From the NCBI GenBank assembly GCA_964417635.1, contig CAYQIY010000005.1, positions 14,070-78,069 of the forward strand: 64,000 nucleotides of DNA, read 5' to 3'. Source of the stretch: an uncultured Pseudomonadota bacterium (GTDB lineage: Bacteria > Bacillota > Sulfobacillia > JAUYEF01). The notes beneath the pieces were generated by a model. That model worked only from the letters and a program-made list of their open reading frames with translations. It had not been told where the DNA came from and made no database searches. Shown here in pieces: positions 1,873 to 61,914 of this stretch; the first letter of the stretch is position 1; each line of letters begins with the position of its first letter. Both the position numbers and the translations under genes were made by a program.

Positions 1873-4860
1873 TTGGGAGAGCACCTGGGCGTTATCGAGT
1901 GCCTGAAGAGTTGTGCCGAAGCAGATGAGCGTACGCCCGAGGTGAGTGCGCACATGAGCCTGGCACATTCGGCGCTCTCGCAGAGAGAACAAGCGTTCAA
2001 ATACGCTGCCCGTGCAGCATCAGGTTTTGAGTCCAAGGCTAAGTCGTCCGATGTGACTGCTGGCGCCAATCTGTCATCTTGGCTCGCAGAAGCGTCTTCT
2101 GTAATGCGAGCGCTCGGTGCATCCGGGGATCACGAAAAGGTCATGCAAGTCTTTGGTCTTGTACGTGAGAGTGCTGGCCCTGAGCAAATGTTCATAGCAG
2201 GTATTGCTGCGTGGAATCTTGGTGATTTCAAGCGTGCTTCTCAGATATGGAGAGAAGCGAGTGCGCTAAGAACAGATCTCCCAGTAGACCGGTTGGCGGC
2301 TGTTGCAGGCCTGTTGGATAGCGGACTCGTTCCGAACTTTGAACTGGATTACTGCCTGCCGAAAGATGAAGACCTTTTTGAGACGGATGAAGGAGAACAG
2401 GACGAAGACACGGCTCCAGAGTCTGCGACTCTGCATTCCATGGAGTTGGTACGCCGTTTGTATCTTGCTCTCTGCAGACCGAGCGTAGAGCGTGAGCGCC
2501 TGATATGGGAGATGGTTCTGTTCAGCGATAACTGGGGAGAGTCGCTCGCATCCAATTTGCTCAACGCGCCTGACGTGGGGTCTTCGCTGAAGACGGCAGC
2601 TGCGCAAGCTCTACTGCTGGCCGGCAAGATCGAACAGGATGAAGTCATCTGCATGAACTATCGAGGCGAAACACTCAGCGTGAGTCTTGACCGAATTGCA
2701 CTCGTAGAGCGTGACCCTATTTACGAGTCGAGAATGCTGGCGGCATTAGGCCTATTGTTGGAAGACAGGCCGCACGAAGCGCTTGTGGCTTTGGAGGACG
2801 TGGCGCCGCCCGGTGAAGCGTACCTGCCAGCTATGATCAATCGCGCGCGTCTGCTTGCGACCATGGGCTACCGAGACATGGCGAACTCGGTGCTCAAGCA
2901 TCTTGAGGATGCGCTACCGAATGAGCCAACCGTCAAGCAACTTGCGTCTGACCTGGAAGACGCGACACCGCTGCCGTATGGTATCAGTCGTTTCGGTAGA
3001 GATCATCTGAGGGGGCAGGAGGGACCGGCGTTAGAGCAACACATTGCGCTGGCGCAAGCGCTCAAGCGACAGGGATTCAGGTACATAAACGAGTTGTGTG
3101 CAGCGCACGCATTGACTGAAGCCGGTAAGAGACCGGCCAAAGAGCAGGCGCTCATGAAGATACTCTCTTCAGCAGAGCAGATTGCGACCAAACTCAGGGC
3201 TGAGACCGAGGCAGTGCTGAGAGCGGCCGAAAGCGTGTTGGATGCAGGCGGATGGATGAGATTAGACGATCTAGAACGGTTGTACGGACCGCGCGAAAAG
3301 GACGAGATATACAGGTGGTCGCCGAACGAGCAAACCACGCTGGGTCGTTTGGAAAGACTGGGGCTACTATTCAGCGGCCGGCTCTTTGCATCCAAAGATG
3401 ATGTAGCACTCGCCGTAATACCGGTTGATGTACGTGCCCATCTGGCCTCGGCGCTTGCGCTTCTTGGTAGAACCAAAAGGCAAATCGCCGAGCCTGCGCA
3501 CGTGAAAGAGCGCTCACAAGAGATCAACGAGCCAGCCTGTGTGAGGTTGCGACTTGAACTGAAGGACGTTAAGCCTACAGTGTGGAGACTACTTGAGGTG
3601 CCCGGTGACATCACGCTTCACGACCTGCACAAAGTCATTCAGATTGCAGCCGATTGGTCTGACTATCACCTGTACCGCTTCGAGATCTCCGGATTATGTT
3701 ACAGCCTGCCGAATGCTGAAGACAAGTGGCTCGGGATAGAGTGTATCAACTCCAAGAAGACGGTGCTTTCGAGCGTGCTCACAGAGGGTATGAGTTTCGA
3801 GTATGTGTACGACTTTGGAGATAACTGGGTGCACCTGCTGCAAGTGGAGCGTATCCACGTCCTAGAAGAGCCTATGAGTTGTGCAAGTTGTCTTGCGGGA
3901 GAGCGCGCATTTCCGCCCGAGGACGCTGGAGGTCTTCCGGGCTACGCAAGGCTTATGCGCATCTTGGACGATCCAGATCATCCGCAGCACGAAGAGTATA
4001 GCCTTTGGTCACAGGGCTGGGATCCCGACCACTTCAGCAATGCGGCGATAGACAAGCAACTTGCCAAGCTCACGTTGAGCCGTGGCGCAAAGGAATCGCG
4101 CAATAAGCGCAGCGCGAAGCCGAAGAGCAGTTCGCGAGATCTCGATGCACTGGCGGGGGAACCACGTGATTGGGCAGTCTTTGGCGACCCGTATGACGAG
4201 CTCTCCGCTGTGCTCCGGGAGATAGGCTGTACGACTTCGCCCCATACCTATAGAGGGCTCATTCTCGGAAGTTGCATGGCTGATCGAATGGTGCCGCTGA
4301 GTGAGATCATGCGCATCGCGTGGGAAGGCGAAGAATTTGTGTTCGAGTCACAAGAACACGTTATGAGGCTCCTCAGAGTGCTGGCAGCAGAGTGGAATAA
4401 GATTTCCTCATCTGTTCAGTCATGCAAGGTGAGCCTGTGGCCTTTCGGAAAGATCAGATCGAGCGACCATCTGATTCGCTATGCTGCCGCTCGAAAAGAT
4501 GAGATATCTGGTTTCTTGCACACATTTGAGATGGGTTCTGCGGAGTCTGGCCTCACGAACGTTGCCAAGGTATTGATTCCTAGGCTGCAAACTGTGCTTG
4601 ACTCGGTACTCAGGCTGCTCGAACACCTGCAATCATCCAAAGGTCGCGTAACGGGCTTGAGTGTGCTTGAAGATGAATTTCGGAAGATGGACCAAGTGGT
4701 CGAAAACACGCTGAACTTCATGGCAGCAGACCAAGAATTCCGGCGAACGCAGTCGGCGGTAGCAAAGAGCGGTCAAGCATCGAAAACACGCGTGGGACGC
4801 AATGAGCCTTGTCCATGCGGAAGCGGCAAGAAGTACAAACACTGCTGCGGAACAGCATGA
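1873..4860 (+). CDS. large multidomain protein: N-terminal TPR-like helices, PRiA4_ORF3 (PF07929-like) domain, C-terminal SEC-C metal-binding motif
   Basis: RLRLELKDVKPTVWRLLEVPGDITLHDLHKVIQIAADWSDYHLYRFEI and FEYVYDFGDNWVHLLQVERI match PRiA4_ORF3 signature; C-terminus NEPCPCGSGKKYKHCCG is a SEC-C motif; TTG start at 1873; in-frame TPR-like extension from GTG 1717 interrupted by TAG at 1849-1851. Confidence 0.7.
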   Translation: MGEHLGVIECLKSCAEADERTPEVSAHMSLAHSALSQREQAFKYAARAASGFESKAKSSDVTAGANLSSWLAEASSVMRALGASGDHEKVMQVFGLVRESAGPEQMFIAGIAAWNLGDFKRASQIWREASALRTDLPVDRLAAVAGLLDSGLVPNFELDYCLPKDEDLFETDEGEQDEDTAPESATLHSMELVRRLYLALCRPSVERERLIWEMVLFSDNWGESLASNLLNAPDVGSSLKTAAAQALLLAGKIEQDEVICMNYRGETLSVSLDRIALVERDPIYESRMLAALGLLLEDRPHEALVALEDVAPPGEAYLPAMINRARLLATMGYRDMANSVLKHLEDALPNEPTVKQLASDLEDATPLPYGISRFGRDHLRGQEGPALEQHIALAQALKRQGFRYINELCAAHALTEAGKRPAKEQALMKILSSAEQIATKLRAETEAVLRAAESVLDAGGWMRLDDLERLYGPREKDEIYRWSPNEQTTLGRLERLGLLFSGRLFASKDDVALAVIPVDVRAHLASALALLGRTKRQIAEPAHVKERSQEINEPACVRLRLELKDVKPTVWRLLEVPGDITLHDLHKVIQIAADWSDYHLYRFEISGLCYSLPNAEDKWLGIECINSKKTVLSSVLTEGMSFEYVYDFGDNWVHLLQVERIHVLEEPMSCASCLAGERAFPPEDAGGLPGYARLMRILDDPDHPQHEEYSLWSQGWDPDHFSNAAIDKQLAKLTLSRGAKESRNKRSAKPKSSSRDLDALAGEPRDWAVFGDPYDELSAVLREIGCTTSPHTYRGLILGSCMADRMVPLSEIMRIAWEGEEFVFESQEHVMRLLRVLAAEWNKISSSVQSCKVSLWPFGKIRSSDHLIRYAAARKDEISGFLHTFEMGSAESGLTNVAKVLIPRLQTVLDSVLRLLEHLQSSKGRVTGLSVLEDEFRKMDQVVENTLNFMAADQEFRRTQSAVAKSGQASKTRVGRNEPCPCGSGKKYKHCCGTA

Positions 4861-5008
4861 GGCGAAGCGGCGCATCTCTGGCTGCGACGCTCATGCGTGG
4901 GATGCACGAGCAGAGACGATACTTTCAAGAAGAGGCCGCAGCATGTTTGCCGCAGCCTCTCGGAATTCGGATCGGAAAGAGGGTAACTCTGAGCCAGTAG
5001 CGCGCTGT

Positions 5009-6448
5009 CTAGTGTTTTGGCAGCTGATCTAGTGGCGGTTTGGCCTCTTTCGGCATCTTGCAGACGTAGGGTTTGCCTGCAGTTGCAGTGTTGAACTCTT
5101 CGCGCGCCTTCTCAAGCACATCTGGGCTCTGCAGCAGTCTGCTTCCCGCAATCGCCATGCTCTTTGCTGCGAGAACCAGACCCTTGTGCGCTATGCTATG
5201 ACCGCTTGTGGCAACCACCTGCCATGCGTGGAAAGCCGCGCCAAGCGGAGCGCAGCAAGTGGTAATCTGTGCTGTGGGGGTTATCCAGCTCACATCAGAG
5301 ACGTCAGTCGAGCCGGCAAGCAACCTGCCCCTGTCGTAGGGCGGAGTGATCTGGTCGTCAAGGTACTTGTCGAAAAGGTTCATGGGTATGCCCCATGTGC
5401 GGAATACAGTTTCTTTCTGGCCGGGAGCGAAAGTATCGGTCAGCTCTTTAGCAAACTGGATCTCTTCTTCCGTCCACACTGGCGGGCCCACTTCTTGCAT
5501 CGCCTCATACATCAAGTCTGTCAACACCGTATTCGGCAGCATGTTGTAACAGGCCACGAGGATTTCCATCTTCATTTCGGTTTCGGTCATAAGTGCTGCG
5601 CCTTGTGCTATCTTGACTACGCGCTCGAAGATGTGGTCGACGTCTTCACGTCTTGGAGCTCTGACGTAATACCACGATTGAGCTTCGGCTGGCACAACGT
5701 TGGGCTCGCCGCCGCCCTTGGTTATGACGTAATGGATGCGTGCGTCAGAAATGACGTGTTCGCGGAGGAAGTTCACTCCTACGTTCATCAACTCTACCGC
5801 GTCAAGCGCGCTACGGCCTTGCTCAGGGTTGCCGGCCGCGTGTGCCGAACGTCCGTAGAACGTGAACTTCACCGAGTTCATTGCGTTCGAGGTGGAATAC
5901 CAACCCGTGTTGAACATCATCGGATGCCACGTGAGCGCACAGTCAAGATCGTCGAACAGACCGTCTCTTGCCATAAACACCTTGCCCACCAGAGTCTCTT
6001 CGGCAGGACAGCCGTAGAAGACTATGGTGCCCTTAAGCTTCTTTTCCTCCATCTCCTGCTTGAGGCCGATTACCGTGCCTAGCACTGCTGCGCCATACGT
6101 GTTGTGACCACAGCCATGACCCGGTGCGTCTTCTTTCACAGGTTCTTTCTTCGTAGACACTTTCTGGCTCAGATGCGGTAGAGCGTCGTACTCGGCGAGA
6201 AACCCGATCTTGGGCCTTCCTTCTCCCCAGGTTGCCACAAACGCGCTCGGCATCCCCGCCACAGCACGTTCAACCTTGAAGCCGGATTTCTCGAGTTCTT
6301 GAGCAAGCAACTCAGCAGACTTGAACTCCTGTAGACCTACTTCAGCGAATTCCCATATCTTATCGTTGATCTCGGCAAGGTATGCTTTGTTGTCTTCTAT
6401 CCACTTGGACGCAATCTTACCTCCCACTTCGTTCATCCTCCTGATCAT
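5009..6448 (-). CDS. M20 family amidohydrolase (AbgB / aminobenzoyl-glutamate hydrolase-like)
   Basis: GHGCGHNTYGAAVLG metal-binding motif, CPAEE; alternative GTG start at 6427 has better AGGAGG spacing. Confidence 0.8.
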   Translation of the reverse strand: MIRRMNEVGGKIASKWIEDNKAYLAEINDKIWEFAEVGLQEFKSAELLAQELEKSGFKVERAVAGMPSAFVATWGEGRPKIGFLAEYDALPHLSQKVSTKKEPVKEDAPGHGCGHNTYGAAVLGTVIGLKQEMEEKKLKGTIVFYGCPAEETLVGKVFMARDGLFDDLDCALTWHPMMFNTGWYSTSNAMNSVKFTFYGRSAHAAGNPEQGRSALDAVELMNVGVNFLREHVISDARIHYVITKGGGEPNVVPAEAQSWYYVRAPRREDVDHIFERVVKIAQGAALMTETEMKMEILVACYNMLPNTVLTDLMYEAMQEVGPPVWTEEEIQFAKELTDTFAPGQKETVFRTWGIPMNLFDKYLDDQITPPYDRGRLLAGSTDVSDVSWITPTAQITTCCAPLGAAFHAWQVVATSGHSIAHKGLVLAAKSMAIAGSRLLQSPDVLEKAREEFNTATAGKPYVCKMPKEAKPPLDQLPKH

Positions 6449-6778
6449 TAGGATTTTGGTACCATGGGACTATTGCTCTAGTTCCGCGAAAATCTGAGAA
6501 TTTCCTCTATACAAAATAACAATAATAGCCGCACGAAATATACGCGTCACGGAACAGCGTAACCGGGGGCTTAGTTGCAGGTTGCTAGGTATGGATATAG
6601 GTTTCGAAATGGTGTGAAGACAGGCTGAACGCAGCATCGAGATGGTGTTAGAATGAACGCTAACAGAAGATAACGCTATGATGAGAAGAGTAGGTCTACC
6701 ACACTGTAGGTGGAAGTAGGCGGAGACATCAGAACGTCTGAGCAACCCGACGGGAACACGGCGGGCTCGACGAATCTG

Positions 6779-50206: not shown

Positions 50207-51133
50207 ATGCGCGTCGCACGTCTGCATTATAGAGAACAGATCCTCGAAATCGCGAGCAAACTTGCGCGGCTTGGTGGCTGGGTGGTAGACCTTGCCGAAA
50301 ACCGGGTCGTGTGGTCAGACCAGACAGCAGAAATCCACGAAATGCCGCACGGATATTCTCCCAGCGTAGAACAGGGCATATCTTTTTACGCGCCTGAACA
50401 CAGGAGCAGAATAACAGAGGCGTTCAGCGCGTGCGCCAACGAAGGAAAGCGCTATGACGAAGAACTGCAGATAATCACGAGCACCGGAAGACGTGTATGG
50501 GTTCGTACTATCGGCATTCCGGTGCGAGACGATACCGGCAAGATAGTACGTGTTGAAGGCGGCTTTCAGGACATAACCGAGCGTAAGCGTATAGAAGCTG
50601 CTTTGCGCGAAAGCGAGACTTTCACACGCACCGTGCTAGATCACTTGCCTATCGGGGTTGCGGTCAACAGCGTGGGCGCGGACGGAAGGTTCTCCTATGT
50701 GAACGACAATTTCGTGAAGATATACCGCACTACAAGAGAAGCGCTATCCAGACCCGGTGCGTTCTGGGACGTGGTATACGACGATGCTGCGCTGCGAGAA
50801 CAGTTGCGAAAACGGGTTAGGGAGGACATAGCGAGCGGCGACCCATCGCGTATGGTGTGGCAAGACATCGAAATATGCCGCGAGGGAGAACCAACCACTT
50901 ACGTGAGCGCAAGGAACTACCCCATACCCAACGGGCCATGGGTTATCTCGATGGTTTGGGACGTGACGCAGCGCAAGATGGCTGAAGACAAGGTGAGAGA
51001 GCAGATCGGTGAGCTCAACAGGTGGCACCGGGTGACGCTCGGGCGTGAGGCGCGTATCCTCGAACTGAAGCGAGAAGTGAACCAGCTTCTTGAACAGCTC
51101 GGCAGACCTGCGAAGTATTCAAGCGCCGAGTAA
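50207..51133 (+). CDS. PAS-domain sensor protein without output domain
   Basis: Two PAS-like segments and C-terminal coiled coil; start chosen at Met35; weak RBS. Confidence 0.5.
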   Translation: MRVARLHYREQILEIASKLARLGGWVVDLAENRVVWSDQTAEIHEMPHGYSPSVEQGISFYAPEHRSRITEAFSACANEGKRYDEELQIITSTGRRVWVRTIGIPVRDDTGKIVRVEGGFQDITERKRIEAALRESETFTRTVLDHLPIGVAVNSVGADGRFSYVNDNFVKIYRTTREALSRPGAFWDVVYDDAALREQLRKRVREDIASGDPSRMVWQDIEICREGEPTTYVSARNYPIPNGPWVISMVWDVTQRKMAEDKVREQIGELNRWHRVTLGREARILELKREVNQLLEQLGRPAKYSSAE

Positions 51134-51143
51134 GAGAGGTGGA

Positions 51144-53441
51144 ATGAGCGTGCAGCACTCATCCAAGCACCTGAGGATGAGAGTCGAGTTTACCAGCATG
51201 CTCTTGCTGTCATGCATAATTGTGTCATGCGTGTTCTCGAGTGTTGCGCGCGCCACAGAGATACAGCCGGCAATACGCCTTACGGACGAAGAGATCGAGT
51301 GGTTGAGACAGCATCCTGTAATCAGGGTGGCACAAGATCCGAACTGGCCACCCATTGAATTCGCGTGCGAGGACGGAAGCTTCTGCGGTATGTCAAAAGA
51401 CTACCTGGAGCTGATAGAACAGCGGCTTGGGATCAAATTCGCTCGGGTAACCGGACTCACCTGGCAGCAGGCATACGATAGGCTTCGACGATTCGACATA
51501 GACATGACCACGTCCGTAAGCGTGACGCCCGAAAGGACAGAGTTCTGGGCGTTCACTCGTCCTTATATGGAAGTCCCCATAGTCATTGCCACTGCAATGG
51601 ACGTAACGTTCATTCGAAGTATGGATGAGCTTGTGGGGCGCAAGGTATCTGTGGTCGAAGGCTACTTGGTGTGCGAACTTATGCCACAAGACTATCCTGG
51701 CATCGAACTCGTGCGCGTAGAGAACACTCTCGCAGGGCTAGAGATGGTAAGCCGTGGAGAAGTGTTTGCTCACGTCGACAATATGCTCGTCATAAGCTAC
51801 TACCTTGCAAAGATGCGTTCGGTAAACCTAAAGATTGCGGGTGAGACGCCGTACGTGAACGCACAGGCGATGGCCGTACGAAATGACTGGCCAGAACTCG
51901 CACACATACTGCAAAAAGCTCTGGACTCAATTACACCCGCAGAGCATGAAGAGATTTACAGGCGATGGCTTCCCATTAGGTATGAGCAGCAACCTGACTA
52001 CGGTCTTGTGTGGCGCGTTGCTCTTTGGGCTGTAGCGGTGACGGTGGTATTGCTCTTGTGGAACCGCAGGCTTGCAGCCGAAATAAGGGTGCGTCGCAAA
52101 GCGGAGCACGCCTTGGAAAGAAGCGAAGCGCGCTTTAAGCTGCTGTTCGATTCGATGAGTCAGGGCGTTGTGTATCAAGATGCAGACGCAAGGGTCGTGG
52201 CCGTCAATCCGGCGGCAGAGCGCATTCTTGCGACTTCGGCCGAAGCCCTGATTGGCCAAGAACTGACTCAAGCAGAGTGCGATCAGCAGTTGGTTGACGT
52301 AAGCAGTTTCTCAAGCGACGAGCACCCCGCCGTGATCGCGCTCAAAAGCGGCAGGCCGCAGCATGCTGTCATGCGCGCCCGAAGCAGCACGGGCGAAGAG
52401 CGCTGGATCGAGATCTCGGCCAAACCCCAGTTTGAGGGTGCAAGCAGCACGCCGTATTTGGTGCTCAGTGTGCTTGGAGACATCACCGAACAGAAGCTTG
52501 CGTGGGAGCGCGTTCGAAAAGCGCAGGCTGAATCCGAAAGGCTTCTCAAGGGGGCCAATGAATCTCGTCGCGTGCTGCTCAGTTTGCTTGAAGACAAGAA
52601 CGCTGCAGAGGCAGAGATACAAAGGCTTAATCAAGAACTAGAAGACAGGGTCGAACAGCGCACCGAAGAACTGAGGCGAAGCGAGCAGCAACTCAGGAAG
52701 ACGGTTGACGAGCTAAACCAGTATTCGGCAAGGCTCGATAGGGTTAACGCTGAACTCGCGGCCGCGAACCGCGAACTCGAAGCTTTCAGCTACTCAGTAT
52801 CGCATGACCTCAAAGCGCCTCTCAGGCACATAGCGGGTTTTGCCGAGCTGCTCGACGCTGCCAACAAAGACCTGGATCCAAAATCCAGGCACTACATAAG
52901 AACAATCCTAGAAGCAGCCAAGAGAATGGGACAACTCATTGATGACCTGCTTACGTTTTCACGAATGGGTCGGGTAGAGATGCTCAGCAGGAAGGTGAAC
53001 ATGAATGAGCTGGTAAAAGAGGTAGTCTCAGAATTTGAGGAAGAGACAGCCGGGCGGAAGATTGATTGGGTTGTTCAAGAATTGCCGAGTATTTCGGGTG
53101 ACCCCTCGATGCTTCGCGTTGTGTTTGAGAACCTAATTTCCAATGCCGTCAAATTCACCAGGGCGCGCGAGAAAGCCAGGATCGAAATCGGCGGCAGAAC
53201 TGATGGCAAAGAAGCCACGTTCTACGTCAGAGATAATGGCGCCGGTTTCGACATGGCGTATGTCGACCGCATTTTCGACGTGTTTCAGCGGCTGCATTCG
53301 CGAAGCGAGTTTGAGGGCACAGGCATAGGGCTTGCCAACGTGAAGCGGGTGGTCGAACGGCACGGCGGCACGGTATGGGCACAAGGAGAACTCGATGAAG
53401 GAGCGACGTTCTACATCGCATTGCCTGTAAGAGAGGTGTGA
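51144..53441 (+). CDS. sensor histidine kinase with periplasmic family-3 solute-binding domain, TM, PAS, HisKA, HATPase_c
   Basis: Signal peptide; H-box YSVSHDLKAPLRHI; N/G-box motifs; start ATG 51144 after GAGGTGG. Confidence 0.8.
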   Translation: MSVQHSSKHLRMRVEFTSMLLLSCIIVSCVFSSVARATEIQPAIRLTDEEIEWLRQHPVIRVAQDPNWPPIEFACEDGSFCGMSKDYLELIEQRLGIKFARVTGLTWQQAYDRLRRFDIDMTTSVSVTPERTEFWAFTRPYMEVPIVIATAMDVTFIRSMDELVGRKVSVVEGYLVCELMPQDYPGIELVRVENTLAGLEMVSRGEVFAHVDNMLVISYYLAKMRSVNLKIAGETPYVNAQAMAVRNDWPELAHILQKALDSITPAEHEEIYRRWLPIRYEQQPDYGLVWRVALWAVAVTVVLLLWNRRLAAEIRVRRKAEHALERSEARFKLLFDSMSQGVVYQDADARVVAVNPAAERILATSAEALIGQELTQAECDQQLVDVSSFSSDEHPAVIALKSGRPQHAVMRARSSTGEERWIEISAKPQFEGASSTPYLVLSVLGDITEQKLAWERVRKAQAESERLLKGANESRRVLLSLLEDKNAAEAEIQRLNQELEDRVEQRTEELRRSEQQLRKTVDELNQYSARLDRVNAELAAANRELEAFSYSVSHDLKAPLRHIAGFAELLDAANKDLDPKSRHYIRTILEAAKRMGQLIDDLLTFSRMGRVEMLSRKVNMNELVKEVVSEFEEETAGRKIDWVVQELPSISGDPSMLRVVFENLISNAVKFTRAREKARIEIGGRTDGKEATFYVRDNGAGFDMAYVDRIFDVFQRLHSRSEFEGTGIGLANVKRVVERHGGTVWAQGELDEGATFYIALPVREV

Positions 53442-53446
53442 GATGC

Positions 53447-53899
53447 GTGGAGTTACTTGGAAGGATACTTCTGGTTGAGGATGACCCCAACGATGTTGAG
53501 CTCACGCTGACTGCGCTTGAGCAGCACAATCTGAGAAACGAGATCGTGGTGGCATATGATGGGGAGGAGGCGCTGGACTACCTATACCGTAGAGGTCGCT
53601 TTGTGGGCGTGCCGCCAGCGCAGCCTGCGGTGGTACTGCTTGATCTGAAGCTTCCAAAGATAAGCGGGTTTGAGGTTTTGCGTCAGATAAAGTCAGACCC
53701 GCTTCTCAAGATGATACCAGTGGTTATCCTCACTTCTTCAGGTGAGGATAAGGACCTTGCCAAATGCTATGAACTTGGCACCAGCGCTTATGTAGTCAAG
53801 CCGGTGAATTTCCACGAGTTTGTGGACGCTGTAAGAGACATAGGCGCGTTCTGGGCGGTTCTTAACGAACCGTCACCCGGTTGTGTGAAAAGAAGATGA
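53447..53899 (+). CDS. single-domain response regulator (CheY-like REC)
   Basis: LLVEDDPNDVEL...VLLDLKLPK with phospho-acceptor Asp; overlaps kinase stop. Confidence 0.8.
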   Translation: MELLGRILLVEDDPNDVELTLTALEQHNLRNEIVVAYDGEEALDYLYRRGRFVGVPPAQPAVVLLDLKLPKISGFEVLRQIKSDPLLKMIPVVILTSSGEDKDLAKCYELGTSAYVVKPVNFHEFVDAVRDIGAFWAVLNEPSPGCVKRR

Positions 53900-53921
53900 T
53901 GTATGGCGAGGAGGCGGCGTC

Positions 53922-55298
53922 ATGAAGCACAGAGTGCGCATTCTACATCTTGAAGATGACATTAACGATGCCGAACTTATCGCGGCGAAGATAGCAATGG
54001 CCGGAATTTCGGTAGAGTTCGAGCGTGTTGAAACAGAAGAGGATTTTCTCAATGCGCTCCGATACAACAAGTTTGATATCATCCTATGCGATTACGCGCT
54101 GCCATCGTACGACGGCATGGCGGCGCTAGAGGCCAAGCGCCGACTATGCCCTAACGTGCCCTTCATATTCGTCTCAGGCACCATGGGAGAAGAGCCTGCA
54201 ATTGACGCTTTGAGACTCGGAGCAACGGATTATGTGCTGAAACACAGGTTATCCCGGTTGGTGCCTGCGGTTACGCGCGCTCTGAACGAAGCTGAGATGG
54301 TACGAACGCGAATGAAGGCTGAGCAGTCTTTGCGTGAGAGCGAAGCCAAGTTCAGGGAGATATTCGACAGCATTATCGACTTGTTCTACCGTACGGACGC
54401 TGAAGGCCGTGTTCTCATAGTATCACCTTCTGCGGCGAGTGTTCTCGAGTACTCCCCCGAAGAACTGGTAGGCAAGAATTTGCTCGATTGCTTCCTCGTA
54501 GAAGAAGATCGCCAACGCTTCAAGACGATGCTCGAAGAATTCAGCGAGGTGCGCGAGTTTGAGGCGCCGATGCTCACAAAACAGCGCAAAGTGGTATGGG
54601 TTTCGACGAATGCACGGCTATATCCGGATGAACGCGGAGGAATTCTCGGCGTTCAGGGGGTTGCCAGGGATATAACCGACCGTAAGCACGCCGAAGACGA
54701 ACTTCGTTCGGTCGCACAGAAATTCAAGAAGGCACTTGACGGCAGTATCGCGGCGATGTCGGCGATAGTCGAGATGAGAGACCCGTACACTTCAGGTCAC
54801 CAGAAGCGAGTCGCCCAACTTGCAGGAACGATAGCATCTGAACTCGCGCTCTCTGGCGAGCAGATTGAGGCGGTGTACACGGCTGCAGCCATTCACGACG
54901 TTGGTAAGATCAGCGTGCCGTCAGAGATACTGAGCAAGCCGTCTAGGCTCAATCATATCGAGACAATGTTCGTGCGGCGCCATCCTCAAGAAGGCTATAG
55001 CATACTCGCAAACATCGACTTCCCTTGGCCGCTTGCAGAAATTGTGTACCAGCACCATGAACGGTTTGACGGTTCGGGTTACCCGAGAGGCCTCACCGCT
55101 GTAGATATGCTTGCGGAGTCAAGGATCATTGCGGTGGCGGATGTGGTAGAAGCAATGGCTTCGCACAGACCGTACAGGCCTGCGCTCGGAATCGAGACTG
55201 CTCTTTGTGAGATCGAAGAACACAGCGGAGAATTGTACTGTCCCGAAGTGGTTGCCGCGTGTCTGAGACTGTTCAGAGAGAAAGACTACGTGCTATAG
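53922..55298 (+). CDS. response regulator with REC, PAS and HD-GYP (c-di-GMP phosphodiesterase) domains
   Basis: ILHLEDDIND REC; HHERFDGSGYP HD-GYP motif. Confidence 0.8.
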   Translation: MKHRVRILHLEDDINDAELIAAKIAMAGISVEFERVETEEDFLNALRYNKFDIILCDYALPSYDGMAALEAKRRLCPNVPFIFVSGTMGEEPAIDALRLGATDYVLKHRLSRLVPAVTRALNEAEMVRTRMKAEQSLRESEAKFREIFDSIIDLFYRTDAEGRVLIVSPSAASVLEYSPEELVGKNLLDCFLVEEDRQRFKTMLEEFSEVREFEAPMLTKQRKVVWVSTNARLYPDERGGILGVQGVARDITDRKHAEDELRSVAQKFKKALDGSIAAMSAIVEMRDPYTSGHQKRVAQLAGTIASELALSGEQIEAVYTAAAIHDVGKISVPSEILSKPSRLNHIETMFVRRHPQEGYSILANIDFPWPLAEIVYQHHERFDGSGYPRGLTAVDMLAESRIIAVADVVEAMASHRPYRPALGIETALCEIEEHSGELYCPEVVAACLRLFREKDYVL

Positions 55299-55824: not shown

Positions 55825-55853
55825 CAGGCCCCGCGTGTTGTGTGCGGGGCCTG
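55825..55853 (+). terminator. intrinsic terminator
   Basis: Perfect 10-bp stem CAGGCCCCGC-gtgttgtgt-GCGGGGCCTG then UGUGCAUGUUG. Confidence 0.55.
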
Positions 55854-55922
55854 TGTGCATGTTGCACCCTGTCCCGCACGGACTCTGCCGATGTGTTGAC
55901 GGCGCGACGAAAGTCGCATACA

Positions 55923-55944
55923 AATGAATGAACGTTCATTCATT
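55923..55944. promoter_or_regulatory. 22-bp perfect palindrome AATGAATGAACGTTCATTCATT
   Basis: Seen directly; candidate operator ~75 nt upstream of conserved element copy 1. Confidence 0.4.
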
Positions 55945-56019
55945 CTAGGAGAGATGCTGATGCGCGAGCAAGAAGACAAGAAGGAACAGATAAGGCGGGC
56001 AGCGGCGCGGGTCAACCCT

Positions 56020-56182
56020 GAGAGACGTGATAGGGTAGTCGGGAGCAAATCGGTGGGGATTCACCCTTGACGGGACCATTGTATCGCATAGATTCAACCA
56101 TATATGCAAGGTCGTAAGACTCGTAGATCAACTACGAGAACGAGAGATCTAGAGTCCTAAACTCAAAAGATGGAGATAGGAG
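56020..56182 (+). ncRNA. conserved non-coding element copy 1 (candidate structured cis-regulatory RNA / 5' UTR), ends in the SD of the cupin gene
   Basis: 5' block GAGAGACGTGATAGGGTAGTCGGGAGCAAATCGGTGGGGATTCACCCTTGACGGGAC and 3' block AACTACGAGAACGAGAGATC...ACTCAAAAGATGGAGATAGGAG also occur at 57854-58020 with the same ~165-nt spacing. Confidence 0.4.
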
Positions 56183-56191
56183 TGAGAGTAC

Positions 56192-56482
56192 GTGAAAGTA
56201 GTTGATCTGGACAACCTCAGAGTCGATGGTCGCCGCGCAATGCTCCAGAGCGCGGCAAGACACAAAGTGATTCTCGTTGAACTCGATGCAGGTGGCGAGA
56301 TCGAAAAATGTGAGATGAACTGTCACGTGCTATTCTTGGTGCTCGACGGATCGGCAGAAGTGTGGGTAGATGGTGAGAAGACGACTATCTCAAAGCACTC
56401 ATGTCTTATGACAGAGCCTGCCACTCTCGCTATGCAGTCTTCCGACGGGGTGCGTTTCGTTGGTGTGCAGATTGATGTCTAG
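56192..56482 (+). CDS. cupin-domain protein (96 aa)
   Basis: Small beta-rich protein with cupin-like motif pattern; GTG start 9 nt after GGAGATAGGAG. Confidence 0.55.
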   Translation: MKVVDLDNLRVDGRRAMLQSAARHKVILVELDAGGEIEKCEMNCHVLFLVLDGSAEVWVDGEKTTISKHSCLMTEPATLAMQSSDGVRFVGVQIDV

Positions 56483-56505
56483 CGGAAGGGGCCAATGAAC
56501 GCAAT

Positions 56506-56533
56506 CAACCAGCCGCAGGAAGGCGGCTGGTTG
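56506..56533 (+). terminator. intrinsic terminator after cupin gene
   Basis: Perfect 11-bp stem CAACCAGCCGC-aggaag-GCGGCTGGTTG then AUGUAUU. Confidence 0.5.
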
Positions 56534-56856
56534 ATGTATTGAAGGGAGTAGCTTCGCGGTTCTATCCGCAAACATGCTATCCGACTGAGACCCAGAGTGT
56601 AGAGAACGCTCAAACCAAGACCTTCGGGAACCACGTTAGTGAAACCAAACTATCCAATCCCCTGCTCTGCCTGGCGAAGCTGCTCCCTGCTATAATTATA
56701 GAATATTGCAAGAGTAAAAACAACAACAATTAGTGTGACCTGAGATGGTAATTGCTGTAGACACGTTAATGGCCTAAAGGATACACTTTAGATAGATGCA
56801 TTGCCCGAACCACTCCGGATCCCGCGATTCTCAGATAGTACAAGGGGGATATAGGC

Positions 56857-57171
56857 GTGAAACTGGTTCTGGCAGTGGTGCAGGACAAAGACTGGCCGCG
56901 GCTTCAGGCTGCGCTGACCCGACAAGGGTTTCGCGTAACAAAACTCTCAAGCACGGGAGGGTTTCTGAGGCAAGGCAACACTACCCTTTTCGTGGGAACA
57001 GAGGATAGCCGCGTGGACAGCATCATAGAAATCGTGCGCGAGACATGTAGGTCGAGAGAGCAATACGTCGATGCTTCGGTATCCGGACAAGATGCAGATA
57101 TGCCGGTGAAGGTAGTGATCGGCGGAGCTACGCTTTTTGTCGTCGCGCTTGAGCGGATGGAGAGAATCTAG
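56857..57171 (+). CDS. darA: PII-like cyclic-di-AMP receptor DarA (YaaQ/DUF970 family)
   Basis: MKLVLAVVQDKD..FRVTKLSSTGGFLRQGNTTLFVGTEDSRV...GGATLFVV closely parallels B. subtilis DarA; GTG start after AAGGGGGAT. Confidence 0.75.
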   Translation: MKLVLAVVQDKDWPRLQAALTRQGFRVTKLSSTGGFLRQGNTTLFVGTEDSRVDSIIEIVRETCRSREQYVDASVSGQDADMPVKVVIGGATLFVVALERMERI

Positions 57172-57221
57172 GAGCACCATCTGTTAGTGCGAACACTACA
57201 CCCGGTCTATTGGCGGGTGTC

Positions 57222-57249
57222 GCTGGTTCGGACCCAGCATTGACCACCA
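57222..57249 (+). other. tRNA-like 3' fragment (T-arm GCTGG-TTCGGAC-CCAGC, acceptor 3' strand and CCA) lacking a matching 5' half; possible att-site remnant
   Basis: Seen directly; T-loop non-canonical, no complementary 5' acceptor upstream. Confidence 0.3.
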
Positions 57250-57351
57250 TTCATTTGCCTAGCAGAAGCATGGGTCTTGGTGACGGACTCCTGCTTCTCT
57301 TTGCTGTGCCGTGGGGCCACGACGCGGCCTGTTGTGCTCACAAGTTTCCGA

Positions 57352-57474
57352 TGTGCCCGAAGCCATGGCGTCGAACGCCGCGGCAGCCGCCTCTTGCATG
57401 CTGGGAATCACATGTGAGTAGGTGTCCAGAGTCGTCGCAATCCCGCTCTTATGGCATGGCTTCCGGAAATCACC
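57352..57474 (-). pseudogene. C-terminal remnant of tyrosine recombinase / phage integrase
   Basis: Minus-strand translation ...CHKSGIATTLDTYSHVIPSMQEAAAAAFDAMA reproduces the integrase C-terminal catalytic-Tyr block; no upstream integrase body. Confidence 0.6.
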
Positions 57475-57853
57475 GAGCCCGATAGTCTCGTCAACGAAGA
57501 ACTCCATTTGCCGGTCATTCGAGCAGACCGGTTGCATCGGTTTAGGCACGAGGTTGGCCTGGTGCCGGTCTTCGGTCCGGTCAAGCGTCACCTGATTTGC
57601 CCTTTGGTCTGTTGGCTTCGTGTTCTATCACATGTAACTTTCACTGCTCACTTAAGTGGGCCACCTGTGTCGTGTTCTTTGTCTGAAGGCGTGTATGCCG
57701 AGTCAAGAAATCTGACACATCTCAGGCAACAACAAAACCCTCTTGGGCGGGGATGCTGTCATCCTCCATTAGGGCTTGGACCATGCAGTAAAGCATACAG
57801 CATCCCACCCGATCCCAAGAGGCAGAACGAAGGACTGTAAGGGCAAAGACCGT

Positions 57854-58020
57854 GAGAGACGTGATAGGTAGTCGAGAGCAAGCCCGTGGGGATTCACCCT
57901 TGGCGGAACTCCAACTGCAGAGACTCCAACAACTAGATACTCAGTACTGCACCTTAGGATTTGACATTTAACTACGGGATGGAGAGATCCGCAGTCGTAG
58001 ACTCAGAAGACGGAGATAGG
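57854..58020 (+). ncRNA. conserved non-coding element copy 2; its SD is followed by an 8-codon uORF (ATG 58025) and then ~250 nt before the LuxR-membrane gene
   Basis: Same conserved 5' and 3' blocks as 56020-56182; compensatory U-A to C-G change flanking the GGUG-GGGAUU-CACC hairpin. Confidence 0.4.
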
Positions 58021-58274
58021 CAGAATGGGCGTTGTGATGTGCTTGTACTGAGTAGTGCCTGCTCAAAGAGGCCATATCGCTTGGGTCTATTCCCGGTATC
58101 GCGTCTTGGGTGGATAATCTGGTCTGTGTGTTGCAGGAGGTTCTGGTAGAGCAGTGAATCTATCCCAGTGGAGAACCATATTCCGTGTTTTGAACTGTAC
58201 CGGGCAGTGCGCCGCACGCTGGCTGCGGGCGGAGACTCCGATAACAGCAGCGGCCTTACAGAGGAGAATGGGCC

Positions 58275-59648
58275 GTGAAGCGGAACCCTCAAACCTTGAT
58301 CGTACTCTCTTACGGATCGTTTCTAGGCTGGCTGCTCGCGTTTCCGTTCAGTGGGCCTATACTACATCGACTTGCAGATTCTAAGGGTATCAGTAGTATG
58401 TCGCTGGGGCTTGCGTACATAGGCACGCCCGTCCTGTTTCTTGCGCTTTTCCTCATTTCCCCCAGACGTGAAGAACGAGCCAAACAGATGATGCTTGCCG
58501 GATGTGCGGTGTGTGCCATCGGGTCTGCACTGCTCCTTCTGGCAAGCGCCGTTGTGTTACATGTGCTCATGGCGCTGATGGGCATAGCATCTGTCGTATT
58601 CATCATGGGATGGAGCTACTACTACACTGTGGATGTACCCATCGCAGACAAGATGAAAGCGATGGCACTCGTCATATTGACAGGCAACGTGATTCACTAC
58701 GTACTGACCGTGCTTGGCGAGTCGCTCCTGGTTGGGCCACTGGTCGCGCTTGCGACCATGCCCGTGGTTGCGGCATTCTACGTGAGTTTCCAGATAGCTC
58801 ACGTGCCTCAGCACCGAATTCAGTACCCGTGTGCGCCTGAGTTTCCTTTGAGCCTAATGGCAGTGGTATGCGTGTTCTTGTTCGTGTTGAACCTAAACGG
58901 CGGGCTGATGGCCGAAGCCATAGAGCCGTACTTCAGAGCAAGGGGTTTGTTTTCGGCGTACTACGGAATGATGCCGTACATTCTCACTCTGGCGTTGTAC
59001 TACCTCTGTGCGCACAGAGTACCCAGACTGTTCCCCGTGTACTTTGCCACATCACTACTAGGTCTTGCATACGTTTCGTTCAGTATGTTCGGCCATGCTG
59101 CGGCAGGATATTACCTTACCCAGACTTTTGCGCAGGCAGGCTGGGCTCTTATTGACGTGTTCTTGTGGAGTCTTCTGGGTGAGATTGCATCGATGTACGG
59201 GCGTCCGCTTACGATTTCGTCGCTAGGACTAGGCGTGAACCTAGCCGCGGTATCATTGGGTGCTATCCTGGGTGCGAGGCTTGTGCATACCTCCGACGGC
59301 AATGTCGTTGCAGTCGTGGGACTTACAGCGGTGTCCATAGTGTTCGCCACATTTTTCGTGGTGCCGTTTATGAACGCGCGTATCGAGAGAGATCTTGTTC
59401 ATAGGATGAAGAAGACTGATGCCGTATCTCGTAAGGTGTTGCTACCCGAAGGCCACAGCCTAACTCCGCGTGAACTCGAAATCACGATGCTGTTGTTCCA
59501 GGGCCACAGCAACAAGGATATCGCGAAGCGGCTTAGCATAAGTGAGAACACGTTGAAAGTGCACGCAAGGCACATCTACGCCAAACTTGGGGTGTCGAAT
59601 AAGAAAGAGTTGTTCCAGCTCGCGCTTGAGTCAACAACAAGAACGTGA
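58275..59648 (+). CDS. polytopic membrane protein fused to C-terminal LuxR-type HTH DNA-binding domain
   Basis: ~10-12 TM helices; C-terminal LTPRELEITMLLFQGHSNKDIAKRLSISENTLKVHARHIYAKLGV (GerE/LuxR HTH); GTG start after GAGGAG. Confidence 0.7.
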   Translation: MKRNPQTLIVLSYGSFLGWLLAFPFSGPILHRLADSKGISSMSLGLAYIGTPVLFLALFLISPRREERAKQMMLAGCAVCAIGSALLLLASAVVLHVLMALMGIASVVFIMGWSYYYTVDVPIADKMKAMALVILTGNVIHYVLTVLGESLLVGPLVALATMPVVAAFYVSFQIAHVPQHRIQYPCAPEFPLSLMAVVCVFLFVLNLNGGLMAEAIEPYFRARGLFSAYYGMMPYILTLALYYLCAHRVPRLFPVYFATSLLGLAYVSFSMFGHAAAGYYLTQTFAQAGWALIDVFLWSLLGEIASMYGRPLTISSLGLGVNLAAVSLGAILGARLVHTSDGNVVAVVGLTAVSIVFATFFVVPFMNARIERDLVHRMKKTDAVSRKVLLPEGHSLTPRELEITMLLFQGHSNKDIAKRLSISENTLKVHARHIYAKLGVSNKKELFQLALESTTRT

Positions 59649-59775
59649 TTATGTACGTACGGGTGAGCGATACTCTGTCCAGGACGCAAAAGATAACCCC
59701 TAGGGGTAATATGGAACTGAATATGTGCGTGTTAATATTCAGACACCATATCTTACCTAGCAGGGGGCGTGTGTC

Positions 59776-61914
59776 ATGGCCGGTGTCAGGCGTGTTTTCG
59801 TTTGTGTTGTCGTATCGCTGGCGATGCTGTTTGCTCTGCTGCCGCCCGGGGCTGCATTGGCCGAGGCGCTTCCCGAAGCGCCCTATCTAGAAGTCATAAT
59901 GCAGAGCACACCGGCCGCCAGCGCGTTTATCAACTCGTATCTTTCAGATCCGTTGTTCCGCGACTCAGATGGGATCATGCACTTAGGCCCTTCGGGCATA
60001 AGCCCGCATGACGGTCTGTATACCAGGTCTACCGACTCGGGACAGACATGGTCTCCTCGTATCAACATAACCAGGGAGGCAACTGCTTCCAAGGGCGGCA
60101 CTATCTACGTCAACAACACTACCAAAAAAGGCCTCTATATGGGTTTTTTCAACGTGTCCGGGTATAATCTCAACTACACATATGACGGAGGACTCACTTG
60201 GACCACCGGAGCATACCGCTTCATACCCGGTTCAAGCGGAGGTCTGACCTCGTACCTCTATCCTCTGGGCTCTGCCTACGATGGCGAAAACACAGTGTAT
60301 GCTGTGACGTGGAGTTCTTACTACCACTGGGGCAATGGAAAAGCAGCCATATCCAAGAGCACAGACTTAGGTACCACATGGACGTCGATGGCGGGAGTAG
60401 CGAATTCGAATACGATGTTGCTTGACTCGAACGACAGATACGCCATAGATGCAGTCGACCTGATAATCGATGCAGACGGTGTGCTGTACGTGCTGTACCT
60501 CGCGAACGATACCCAGAACAAGTGGAACCTCAAAGCGTACAACAGCGCCACATCGGTGCGCGAGACCGTAGTTCAAGATTTGGGGTACACAAGATTTGGT
60601 GTAACAGGTGTGACCGCATGGTTTGAGCAGGACGGAAAAAGCCTGAATGTGGCGTTTGTGAGAGAAACAGGGCCGAACGAAGCCTCAGCGATATACCATA
60701 CCAGAAGAGACGTCTCAGGTACCTGGAGTGAGCCCGAGATTGTGGGCACAGACGGGCTCGCGCGCAGACCTTCGCACCTGTCAAGCGCAATAGATGCCGA
60801 AGCCAATACCTACGTGATCTGGTCAAACTACGACGGAGCGCGAAACCGCATGTTCTCATCGGCGAAGCCCGCAGGAGCGGCTTGGGGGCCTGTCACCGAA
60901 GTGTTGACAGATGATCCGACGGTTAGCGCTTGGACTCCGTGGATGAGCGCGGTGGAGCCGGGCGTTGTAGAGGTGGTATTCTCTCGCGCTGTTGGCAGCG
61001 CACGTTCAGCTGGCTATGCCCAGATGCGACTTGCGAATGTGGCGCCTGCCGACGACACACCTCCTTTGATTAGCGCAGAGATCTCGGGAGTTATGGGTGA
61101 AGACGGTTGGTATGTGTCTGATGTGGTTATCATCTGGAATGTGTCTGACGAACAATCGGAGATAACTTCTATCATAGGCGGCGAGCCGATCTTCGTGACA
61201 GAAGACACCGAAGCCGCGGTGTATACATGCCAAGCCACTTCGCTAGGAGGCACGTCAGAGCTGAGTGTGGTAATCAAGAGAGATGCCACTGCGCCCGAGA
61301 TTGTTGTTGTATCACCGCTTCCCGGAGCGTATTCGACCGCAGATAGTATAGTGTTCGAGTATAGCGCATCTGACTCGATGTCGGGGCTTGCCAGCGTATC
61401 CGCCGAACTCAACGGTACAGTAGTATCTGCCGGTGACACATTCAGCCTGGCCCAGAGCGCAGGTGCCAACGTATTTACCGTTGTCGCCCAGGATGTGGCC
61501 GGCAACCAGATTACGAGCGTGGTGCACTTCGATGTGTTGTTAAGTGCAACTCTGGCGCTTGACCCAAAGACTCTTAACGTCGGGAGCCAGGCAGACAAGA
61601 ACGCTGTGACCGCATATATCGAGTTCGGTTCCGGTTACGAAGCAGACCAAGTGGACGTGACGAGTGTACGACTTCGTGTCGGAGAGCGCGAGGTTTGTGC
61701 TCAGACAAGGCCTGTGGAATTCGGTGACTATGATCGGAACGGAATCGGCGATCTTATGCTTAAGTTCAACAGGCAGGAGGTCATTTCCGCGCTCGGCACG
61801 CTCACGGGCGATGTGAGTGTGAAAGTCACAGGCAAGATGCTGGATGGAACTGCGTTTGAGTCTCATGCAAGCATAAACGTGATAAACCCGGGAGTGAAGG
61901 TTCGCACTCGCTGA
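59776..61914 (+). CDS. secreted BNR/Asp-box repeat protein (sialidase-like glycosyl hydrolase fold) with C-terminal Ig-like domains
   Basis: Signal peptide; Asp-box repeats SGQTWSPR, DGGLTWTT, TDLGTTWTS. Confidence 0.65.
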   Translation: MAGVRRVFVCVVVSLAMLFALLPPGAALAEALPEAPYLEVIMQSTPAASAFINSYLSDPLFRDSDGIMHLGPSGISPHDGLYTRSTDSGQTWSPRINITREATASKGGTIYVNNTTKKGLYMGFFNVSGYNLNYTYDGGLTWTTGAYRFIPGSSGGLTSYLYPLGSAYDGENTVYAVTWSSYYHWGNGKAAISKSTDLGTTWTSMAGVANSNTMLLDSNDRYAIDAVDLIIDADGVLYVLYLANDTQNKWNLKAYNSATSVRETVVQDLGYTRFGVTGVTAWFEQDGKSLNVAFVRETGPNEASAIYHTRRDVSGTWSEPEIVGTDGLARRPSHLSSAIDAEANTYVIWSNYDGARNRMFSSAKPAGAAWGPVTEVLTDDPTVSAWTPWMSAVEPGVVEVVFSRAVGSARSAGYAQMRLANVAPADDTPPLISAEISGVMGEDGWYVSDVVIIWNVSDEQSEITSIIGGEPIFVTEDTEAAVYTCQATSLGGTSELSVVIKRDATAPEIVVVSPLPGAYSTADSIVFEYSASDSMSGLASVSAELNGTVVSAGDTFSLAQSAGANVFTVVAQDVAGNQITSVVHFDVLLSATLALDPKTLNVGSQADKNAVTAYIEFGSGYEADQVDVTSVRLRVGEREVCAQTRPVEFGDYDRNGIGDLMLKFNRQEVISALGTLTGDVSVKVTGKMLDGTAFESHASINVINPGVKVRTR

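Follow-up and report, generated by a model that had tools for sequence, protein, structure and literature searches.

A two-copy direct repeat upstream of two unrelated reading frames: a candidate 5' leader for translational control in an uncultured bacterium

The window analyzed here is a stretch of 64,000 nucleotides (nt) from contig CAYQIY010000005.1 (assembly GCA_964417635.1) of an uncultured bacterium. It contains a two-copy direct repeat on the + strand, hereafter the element, whose similarity between copies goes far beyond chance. Both copies are on the same strand as, and directly upstream of, a start codon: that of a cupin-like open reading frame (ORF) of 96 aa for copy 1, that of an 8-codon upstream ORF (uORF) for copy 2. 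In the reading favoured here, held with moderate confidence, the element would be a cis-acting 5' mRNA leader that controls the start of translation at the reading frame immediately downstream. On this reading it is a member, without a family of its own, of a known kind of regulator, i.e., the translational-control leader RNA.

Copy 1 (56015-56180, 166 nt) was found in the leader of the cupin gene by the repeat finder (families D5, D3 and D2), by alignment and by nhmmer (E=1e-55). Copy 2 (57849-58020, 172 nt), found by the same three means, is located 255 nt upstream of a gene for a membrane-anchored LuxR regulator. Each copy is made of a conserved 5' block called A-B-C (56015-56076 in copy 1; 57849-57909 in copy 2, from repeat finder and alignment), a variable middle (56077-56129, 53 nt, and 57910-57969, 60 nt, respectively) and a conserved 3' block called D (56130-56180 and 57970-58020). 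In the 5' block 54/62 positions match (87%), the 8 differences including one 1-nt indel in a G run (GGG vs. GG), and BLAST gives E=3e-9 for this block. In the 3' block 41 of the 51 positions match (80%), with a Smith-Waterman score of 52 against at most 22 in the shuffled window. The 17-mer GTGGGGATTCACCCTTG of the 5' block has only these two occurrences in the window, and a two-copy nhmmer profile finds two sites only in 64 kb, both of them the known copies. The middles and both outer flanks are no more similar between copies than shuffled sequence. Conserved ends around unrelated middles make up a pattern that needs selection on the ends. The purine content is 61% in the 5' blocks and 69% in block D; the base composition across the region shows nothing anomalous. 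An earlier note on this DNA had described a two-copy repeat with conserved ends and a variable middle, and repeat finder, alignment and nhmmer all bear this out; the end blocks are conserved as it said, but «near-identical» is an overstatement.

The conservation is at the nucleotide level, since the 1-nt indel breaks every shared reading frame on both strands, as had been claimed and as the alignment confirms, and since the substitutions between copies are spread evenly over the codon positions (hand count). Coding potential of the element was considered for both strands and is ruled out: the indel and the stop codons speak against it, and so does the even spread over codon positions.

Both copies end in GGAGATAGG, with a start codon 5-12 nt further on (block D of copy 1 ends in GGAGAUAGG, its Shine-Dalgarno (SD) region). 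In copy 2 the SD sequence GGAG (58012-58015) is 9 nt before ATG 58025 of the uORF (58025-58051 on the + strand, MGVVMCLY*), which was read directly from the sequence and starts 5 nt after the copy. For copy 1, AGGAG at 56178-56182 (the last AGG of the element plus AG) is the SD with the better spacing, 9 nt before GTG 56192 of the cupin-like ORF (56192-56482, +). That the 3' end of the element supplies the SD for the cupin gene and for the uORF was already proposed and is supported, with the qualification that the best-spaced SD of copy 1 straddles the end of the element. The cupin-like protein matches Cupin_2 and AraC_binding_2 at E ~1e-3, below the Pfam cut-offs.

The first 24 nt of the element are found a third time, directly after copy 1. 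This partial copy of block A-B, GTGAGAGTACGTGAAAGTAGTTGA (56182-56205, +), aligns with GTGAGAGACGTGATAGGTAGTCGA of copy 2 with 21 identities in 25 alignment columns and a Smith-Waterman score of 26, which is reached by 0/38,340 shuffled windows. It overlaps the start of the cupin gene: its GTG is the cupin start codon (GTG 56192). As this third copy stands exactly on the cupin start region, the conserved motif appears linked to translation initiation. Each full copy also displays GUAGU in block B, ACUAC at the 5' end of block D and GUAGU again just after the start, by reading of the sequence; a competition of block B for the pairing arm described below, better than chance, was not demonstrated.

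The RNA-level signal was obtained by extending the folded region past the start codons. In copy 1 the segment UAGAUCAACUAC (56124-56135, +) is complementary to GUAGUUGAUCUG (56198-56209, +), which corresponds to positions +7 to +18 of the cupin ORF; GUAGUUGA of the third A-B copy is part of this 3' arm. The predicted helix has 12 bp (11 Watson-Crick and one G-U) with pair probabilities of ~1.0 in three contexts, and its chance expectation is 0.05-0.4%. In copy 2 the 5' arm (57938-57969, +) begins with UACUCAGUAC (57938-57947), a perfect 10-bp complement of GUACUGAGUA (58045-58054), and continues with four further segments. In the minimum free energy (MFE) structure the pairs are 57938-47:58045-54, 57949-52:58039-42, 57954-56:58035-37, 57958-60:58031-33 and 57965-69:58023-27, i.e., an interrupted helix of 25 bp across the whole uORF. 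The 3' arm (58023-58054, +) covers start, body and stop of the uORF, and the last segment pairs the AUG (CAUUU/GAAUG). The arm duplexes amount to -18 kcal/mol each.

The geometry is the same in both copies: the 5' arm is in or at the edge of the middle (it is the 3' end of the middle in copy 1), the 3' arm is in the copy-specific downstream sequence, and block D with the SD is the enclosed domain. The sequences of the arms are unrelated between copies. Block D of copy 2 forms the loop that the long helix closes, and in the MFE structure of copy 1 block D has internal UCCUA/UAGGA and CUC/GAG pairs over the SD. The helices are thus predicted to enclose SD and start in both copies, an occlusion of the expression-platform type, with the reserve that the prediction depends on the context for copy 2.

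The complementarity was compared with that of the window's own positions (-200 to -1 against +1 to +60; narrower windows were also run). A perfect complement of at least 11 nt is present at 0.38% of random window positions and one of at least 10 nt at 1.3%, these values being 0.05% and 0.5%, respectively, for the narrower windows. For the 34 other gene starts in the window, the longest complement has a median of 7 and a maximum of 10. The joint chance of both helices is ~5e-5, a value that deserves a discount, as the helices were already known when the test was set up. Duplexes between a middle and its cognate downstream sequence (-28.1 and -33.3) are stronger than the non-cognate ones (-21.6 and -23.9). 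Copy-specific complementarity in statistical excess is thus observed; the helices may form in vivo and repress translation.

The mechanism that we propose is the following. The element would be transcribed as part of the leader, and its 3' block would supply the SD sequence. The variable middle would carry an «anti-start» segment tailored to each downstream ORF; it would vary between copies because it must match different downstream coding sequences. By pairing with the first codons (in copy 2 with the entire uORF, AUG included), this segment would lock block D, SD and start codon in a closed domain, i.e., a default-OFF state. The conserved purine-rich and weakly structured blocks would be the shared functional surface, most likely either a landing place for a trans-acting factor or a standby site for the 30S subunit, which would decide on the use of the closed start. 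Purine-rich and poorly folding blocks fit single-stranded binding or standby regions, and a putative effector may bind them.

The closest described logic appears, by analogy, to be a sequestered ribosome-binding site combined with a standby region. In tisB +42 mRNA and in the MS2 coat model, stable structure locks the start, and initiation requires a single-stranded region ~100 nt upstream (PMC7708055, PMC6690012, PMC5934652). In the same way, the starts considered here are enclosed by predicted helices of 10-12 bp, and purine-rich, weakly structured blocks lie 110-175 nt upstream. On the contrary, the downstream ORFs (a 96-aa cupin-like one and an 8-codon uORF) are not toxin-like, no antisense small RNA (sRNA) was identified, the window having no complementary locus, and the sequences are unrelated; blocks A-C are a putative standby site in view of their low predicted structure. 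The logic of another system is also near. The rpoS leader has an inhibitory long-range stem, and the sRNAs DsrA, RprA and ArcZ, together with Hfq, open it. As there, an upstream segment pairs with the start region, repression would be the default and a trans factor would open the helix. The difference is that no sRNA partner is found, no locus complementary to the conserved blocks being present on either strand of the window, and that the organism is unrelated and the sequences are not similar.

A conserved local fold is much less apparent than the long-range helices. The RNAalifold consensus energy is -16.5, to be compared with -17.3 +/- 3.7 for column shuffles (n=300, conservation classes preserved). 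The corresponding helices have 4 compensatory pairs, and at least 4 are reached in 36% of 300 column shuffles. The structure conservation index (SCI) is ~0.37. The MFEs of the single copies are no better than those of shuffles (z = -0.04 and +1.0) and the conserved 5' blocks are predicted to be less stable than their shuffled versions (z = +1.2). The case for a leader RNA that the earlier note built on structure and covariation is therefore not upheld, energy and compensatory counts being within the shuffle distributions. The U-A to C-G change on which it relied is present (56050-56070 vs. 57884-57904), but compensatory pairs at such a level arise by chance, and the GGUG hairpin called conserved has its neighbouring G-C pair broken in copy 2 (GGUG to CGUG). 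One local hairpin fits both copies: GUCGGG..CUUGAC in copy 1, where it belongs to the MFE structure (candidate pairing 56038-43:56066-71), becomes GUCGAG..CUUGGC in copy 2 by two one-sided compatible changes. No conserved aptamer fold backed by covariation was found, in a test whose power is low because two sequences only are available. In addition, there is no complementarity between blocks A-C and block D, whose pairing is no better than that of shuffles, and blocks A-C compete for the anti-start arm no better than shuffles. Neither copy contains an inverted repeat at seed 6 (0 found) and no intrinsic terminator is present inside the element. What was called a riboswitch-like or protein-bound leader RNA is thus retained as a probable leader acting at the RNA level, through the copy-specific start-occluding helices, whereas the riboswitch fold and its covariation are not retained. 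Nothing in the observations speaks for c-di-AMP or c-di-GMP, the ligands that had been suggested.

The search for relatives was extended to several collections. Rfam 15 at gathering thresholds gives no match in the whole window, not even a tRNA. With E up to 10, stretches of 4 kb, 311 nt and 491 nt give chance-level matches only (mir-1397, part of a P9 terminator, a human lncRNA, a truncated frameshift element), none of them on the + strand of the element. The earlier note could assign the element to no known riboswitch class, and no curated family matched. The two-block exact pattern has 0 matches in 185,579 GTDB species genomes. The 17-mer has matches in 61 stretches of the JGI metagenomes, the element being present in a same-strain contig only; the other matches are chance or coding ones (e.g., «QWGFTLGG» of a TonB receptor). 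Three block patterns give no homologue in viral contigs.

Genes of the neighbourhood were used in the same way. Eight contigs encode the exact DarA protein of the window; they are 99.6-100% identical to the window and carry few single-nucleotide polymorphisms, none within the element or its pairing partners. Two «Bacillota bacterium» metagenome-assembled genomes in GTDB have a DarA relative at 50% identity, and neither has the element. The element is also absent upstream of three homologues of the LuxR regulator (P0003, P0004 and P0006; 43-47% identity) at six loci (L063-L068), and absent from the HD-GYP relatives examined (at most 51% identity). Among 5.8 billion proteins the cupin protein has one homologue only, a same-strain sequence with 99% identity. 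The exact sequences of the proteins at the edges of the window are not on record, and the best matches to three neighbouring proteins are 47-51% identical, without close relatives in the collections searched. No recurrence of the element upstream of functionally related genes in several genomes was found, and the ORFs behind the two copies are not related to one another. The element is thus seen in one near-clonal population of a poorly sampled lineage. As the closest sampled relatives share ~50% protein identity, this absence of homologues is weak evidence either way. The earlier note had stated that a lack of further homologues would speak against a structured RNA; such homologues are indeed lacking, yet the test is a weak one for the same reason.

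Several points weigh against the translational leader. The model is based on two paralogues, without homologues outside the one near-clonal population. The MFE of the whole element is unremarkable (z = -1.7 and 0.0). The helix test was devised after the helices had been seen, and a mononucleotide-shuffle test of the duplex energy gives p ~0.06 per copy. The copy 2 helix has a high probability in a 230-nt context and a probability of 0-0.1 in longer ones, where alternative folds win and the forced helix is 3.8 kcal/mol above the MFE. The ORF protected in copy 2 has only 8 codons and is 225 nt from the LuxR gene. Lastly, the promoter scan points to no sigma-70-like promoter in front of copy 2.

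Other explanations were weighed against the same observations, and each of them leaves unexplained at least one of the following: the pattern of blocks and middle, the SD/start arrangement, the paired helices. The element may be a non-functional relic of DNA rearrangement, i.e., of an old local duplication or of mosaic recombination, with incidental complementarities and SD; this is unlikely, though to be kept in mind before the other alternatives. The region has a degraded look, with long non-coding stretches and a vestigial integrase C-terminus (57364-57447, - strand); the cupin gene is an orphan, a truncated-looking small ORF ends where copy 1 begins, and the element is confined to one population. 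But neutral decay would not leave blocks at 80-87% around middles of similar length without residual similarity, and SD and start codon are kept in both copies. Nor would a relic be expected to have two independent helices, each with 10 or more perfect base pairs, around block D and the start (the joint chance of ~5e-5 given above). Somewhat less probable than a relic is a metabolite riboswitch, in which the 5' and 3' blocks would form the aptamer and the middle a peripheral stem, a ligand toggling the start-occluding helix. The leader position, the bipartite conserved sequence and the alternative helix resembling an expression platform agree with it, the GUAGU/ACUAC/GUAGU triad of both copies could act as a switch, and the lack of an Rfam match would then make it a new class. 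Against it stand the shuffle tests (alifold energy, compensatory counts, SCI ~0.37, z = +1.2), which give no conserved structure beyond chance, the failure of blocks A-C to pair with D or to compete for the anti-start arm better than shuffles, and the absence of recurrence in the other genomes and metagenomes searched. Moreover, paralogous riboswitches have short conserved junctions and covarying stems, and conserved runs of 60 nt at 80-87% identity are unlike them. Translational riboswitches such as thiM (TPP, RF00059) and btuB (cobalamin) consist of a conserved sensor and of a platform that pairs with the start region. The 5' leader position and the pairing of the start region by a platform-like helix are common to them and to the element. 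The differences are the lack of an Rfam match, of a covariation-supported aptamer and of recurrence across taxa, and the place of the anti-start arm, which is here in a non-conserved insert between the blocks and not 3' of an aptamer.

At the DNA level, the blocks could be transcription-factor sites or the promoter of two units, e.g., for the adjacent LuxR-type regulator, and this we judge quite improbable. Copy 2 is upstream of the gene of that regulator, so that autoregulation is conceivable, motif A-B is present three times on one strand like repeated operators, and the blocks are conserved without RNA structure. However, there is no dyad symmetry (0 inverted repeats at seed 6), unlike in typical operators of dimeric helix-turn-helix proteins, and no conserved -35/-10 pair: the sole promoter-like match, at 56067-56094, is not kept in copy 2. 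At 50-60 nt the conserved tracts exceed the usual size of an operator, the upstream regions of the LuxR homologues (L063-L068) are without the element, and the copy-specific helices and the SD of the 3' end would be left unexplained. Very unlikely is a module of translational coupling, in which translation would start at block A-B and ribosomes moving along a short ORF across B, C and the middle would open the anti-start arm and switch on the next ORF, as in leader-peptide attenuation. The GTG of block A-B is homologous to the cupin start codon, the motif falling there on a genuine start region; an ORF of 36 codons in copy 2, from GTG 57861 to TAA 57969-71, runs through the 5' arm, and in copy 1 the same frame closes at a TAA ~9 nt before the arm. 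But the frame of copy 1 is broken after 3 codons (GTG ATA GGG TAG) by the extra G, no good SD precedes the GTG of block A in either copy, the hand count shows no codon-position bias, and peptide similarity stops where nucleotide similarity stops. In the translational attenuation of ermC and cat, a short ORF stands beside a helix that masks the next start site. The 36-codon ORF of copy 2 overlaps the masking arm in the same manner; the differences are that it is broken in copy 1, that no stalling peptide is recognisable and that the downstream genes are not resistance genes. The least credible explanation by far is that the two copies are the termini or att sites of a mobile element (attL/attR, integron attC, miniature inverted-repeat transposable element (MITE)) flanking the cupin-DarA segment. 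Copy 1 does start at the point where the putative TetR-like look of a small ORF stops. The direct repeats also bracket a 1.7-kb segment with an integrase vestige, and they share with integron attC and tyrosine-recombinase att sites the conserved ends, the variable middle, the similar lengths and the integrase fragment nearby. On the contrary, att sites share a single core and not two blocks around a variable middle, and the element has neither terminal inverted repeats nor R''/R' cores or a hairpin of attC type (partly by inspection). Inverse-core/core motifs are lacking, the ends do not form an imperfect palindrome, and by inspection they carry no RYYYAAC/GTTRRRY. The repeats are direct, are 5' of ORFs and have an SD at their end; there is no intact integrase, the integrase being a ~28-aa fragment without Pfam, PDB or plasmid match. 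The window has no other copies, nor were any found in viral contigs or metagenomes, and the composition is not anomalous. The features of a MITE or of a repeat derived from an insertion sequence are also lacking: no terminal inverted repeats, unrelated flanks, 2 copies in 64 kb and none elsewhere in the searches made.

Upstream of copy 1 lies an operon of a histidine kinase, a response regulator and a response regulator (RR)-PAS-HD-GYP protein, then a gene for a secreted-looking protein of 146 aa; a terminator-like 10-bp stem (55825-55853) closes the upstream gene. The kinase / single-domain regulator / RR-PAS-HD-GYP operon (51090-55298) is syntenic with positions 3092-6707 of a Logan contig (L079), whose HD-GYP protein is 51% identical; downstream of the operon the two loci are unrelated. 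Direct reading of 55896-55944 (+) shows a possible promoter, TTGACG-17-TACAAA, and behind it AATGAATGAACGTTCATTCATT (55923-55944), a palindrome of 22 nt without mismatch. The promoter scan does not list this promoter; the place is likely the start of the copy 1 (cupin) transcript, and the layout of promoter-like pair and palindrome looks like that of an operator overlapping a promoter. No sigma-54, extracytoplasmic function (ECF) or alternative-sigma promoter and no TRAP, HutP or CsrA motif pattern fits, by inspection only, and GGA motifs are not enriched.

An ORF of 36 codons (MREQEDKKEQIRRAAARV...) at 55960-56070 overlaps the start of copy 1. Its N-terminus has some likeness to the beginning of TetR-family helix-turn-helix domains, and this likeness stops exactly at 56015, the first position of copy 1. 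The idea of a TetR remnant was rejected, as it has no support from hidden Markov models and no Pfam or PHROG match. In a same-strain contig (L073) a 1-nt insertion at 55984 would shift the frame of this ORF.

The cupin gene is followed by a 13-bp terminator stem (56504-56535), and the order is then: 320 nt of non-coding DNA, the gene of DarA (a c-di-AMP receptor), ~680 nt of apparently decayed DNA and copy 2. At 56862-56873 the window differs from another contig (L001), the difference giving a protein of 100 aa instead of 104 aa. The region 57172-57848 around the integrase vestige looks like decayed DNA. The vestige itself (57364-57447, -) encodes a peptide of ~28 aa, ...SGIATTLDTYSHVIPSMQEAAAAAFDAM, which resembles the C-terminal end of tyrosine integrases. 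It matches two PHROG integrase families at C-terminal profile positions (E=0.045), and no match was found in Pfam, PDB or by plasmid tblastn. A perfect 10-bp stem (GGGATGCTGT / ACAGCATCCC, loop of 37 nt) is located at 57750-57806, ~45 nt upstream of copy 2.

Copy 2 is followed by the uORF, the 225-nt spacer, the gene of the membrane-anchored LuxR/GerE-type regulator (58275-59648, +; GerE domain E=5e-18) and that of a secreted protein of 712 aa. The regulator, whose homologues at 40-47% identity are without the element upstream, is a possible indirect target. The stretch 58275-61914 has a counterpart at positions 528-3936 of L063, i.e., a LuxR/GerE regulator (the homologue at 47% identity), then a large secreted protein, which suggests a conserved regulator-target pair. 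A loose four-member repeat family (55144, 55694, 57354 and 58909) has the core GAAGCCATGGC, with 70-78% identity to the reference over 23 nt; its members, mostly inside ORFs encoding «...EAMA...», are probably due to chance.

The practical weight of the element is limited for now, since it is known from a single uncultured population. A lesson of method is nevertheless obtained: with two paralogues, column-wise covariation is uninformative, and it is the copy-specific complementarity to the downstream ORF that gave the RNA-level signal. If the model of a translational leader holds, the variable middle is not free to drift and would be selected to match the first codons of each gene. The leader would then be a compact and modular route to put unrelated genes under one translational signal, which could be copied in synthetic biology. 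A further step, which we regard as rather unlikely, is that the conserved blocks are the sensor (of a ligand or of a protein) of an undescribed class of cis-regulatory RNA, gating a modular and gene-specific anti-start helix. If true, such a switch would so far be found only in a deep and poorly sampled lineage, maybe related to Bacillota, and its middle could be re-tailored to any coding sequence, making it a portable «plug-in» translational switch.

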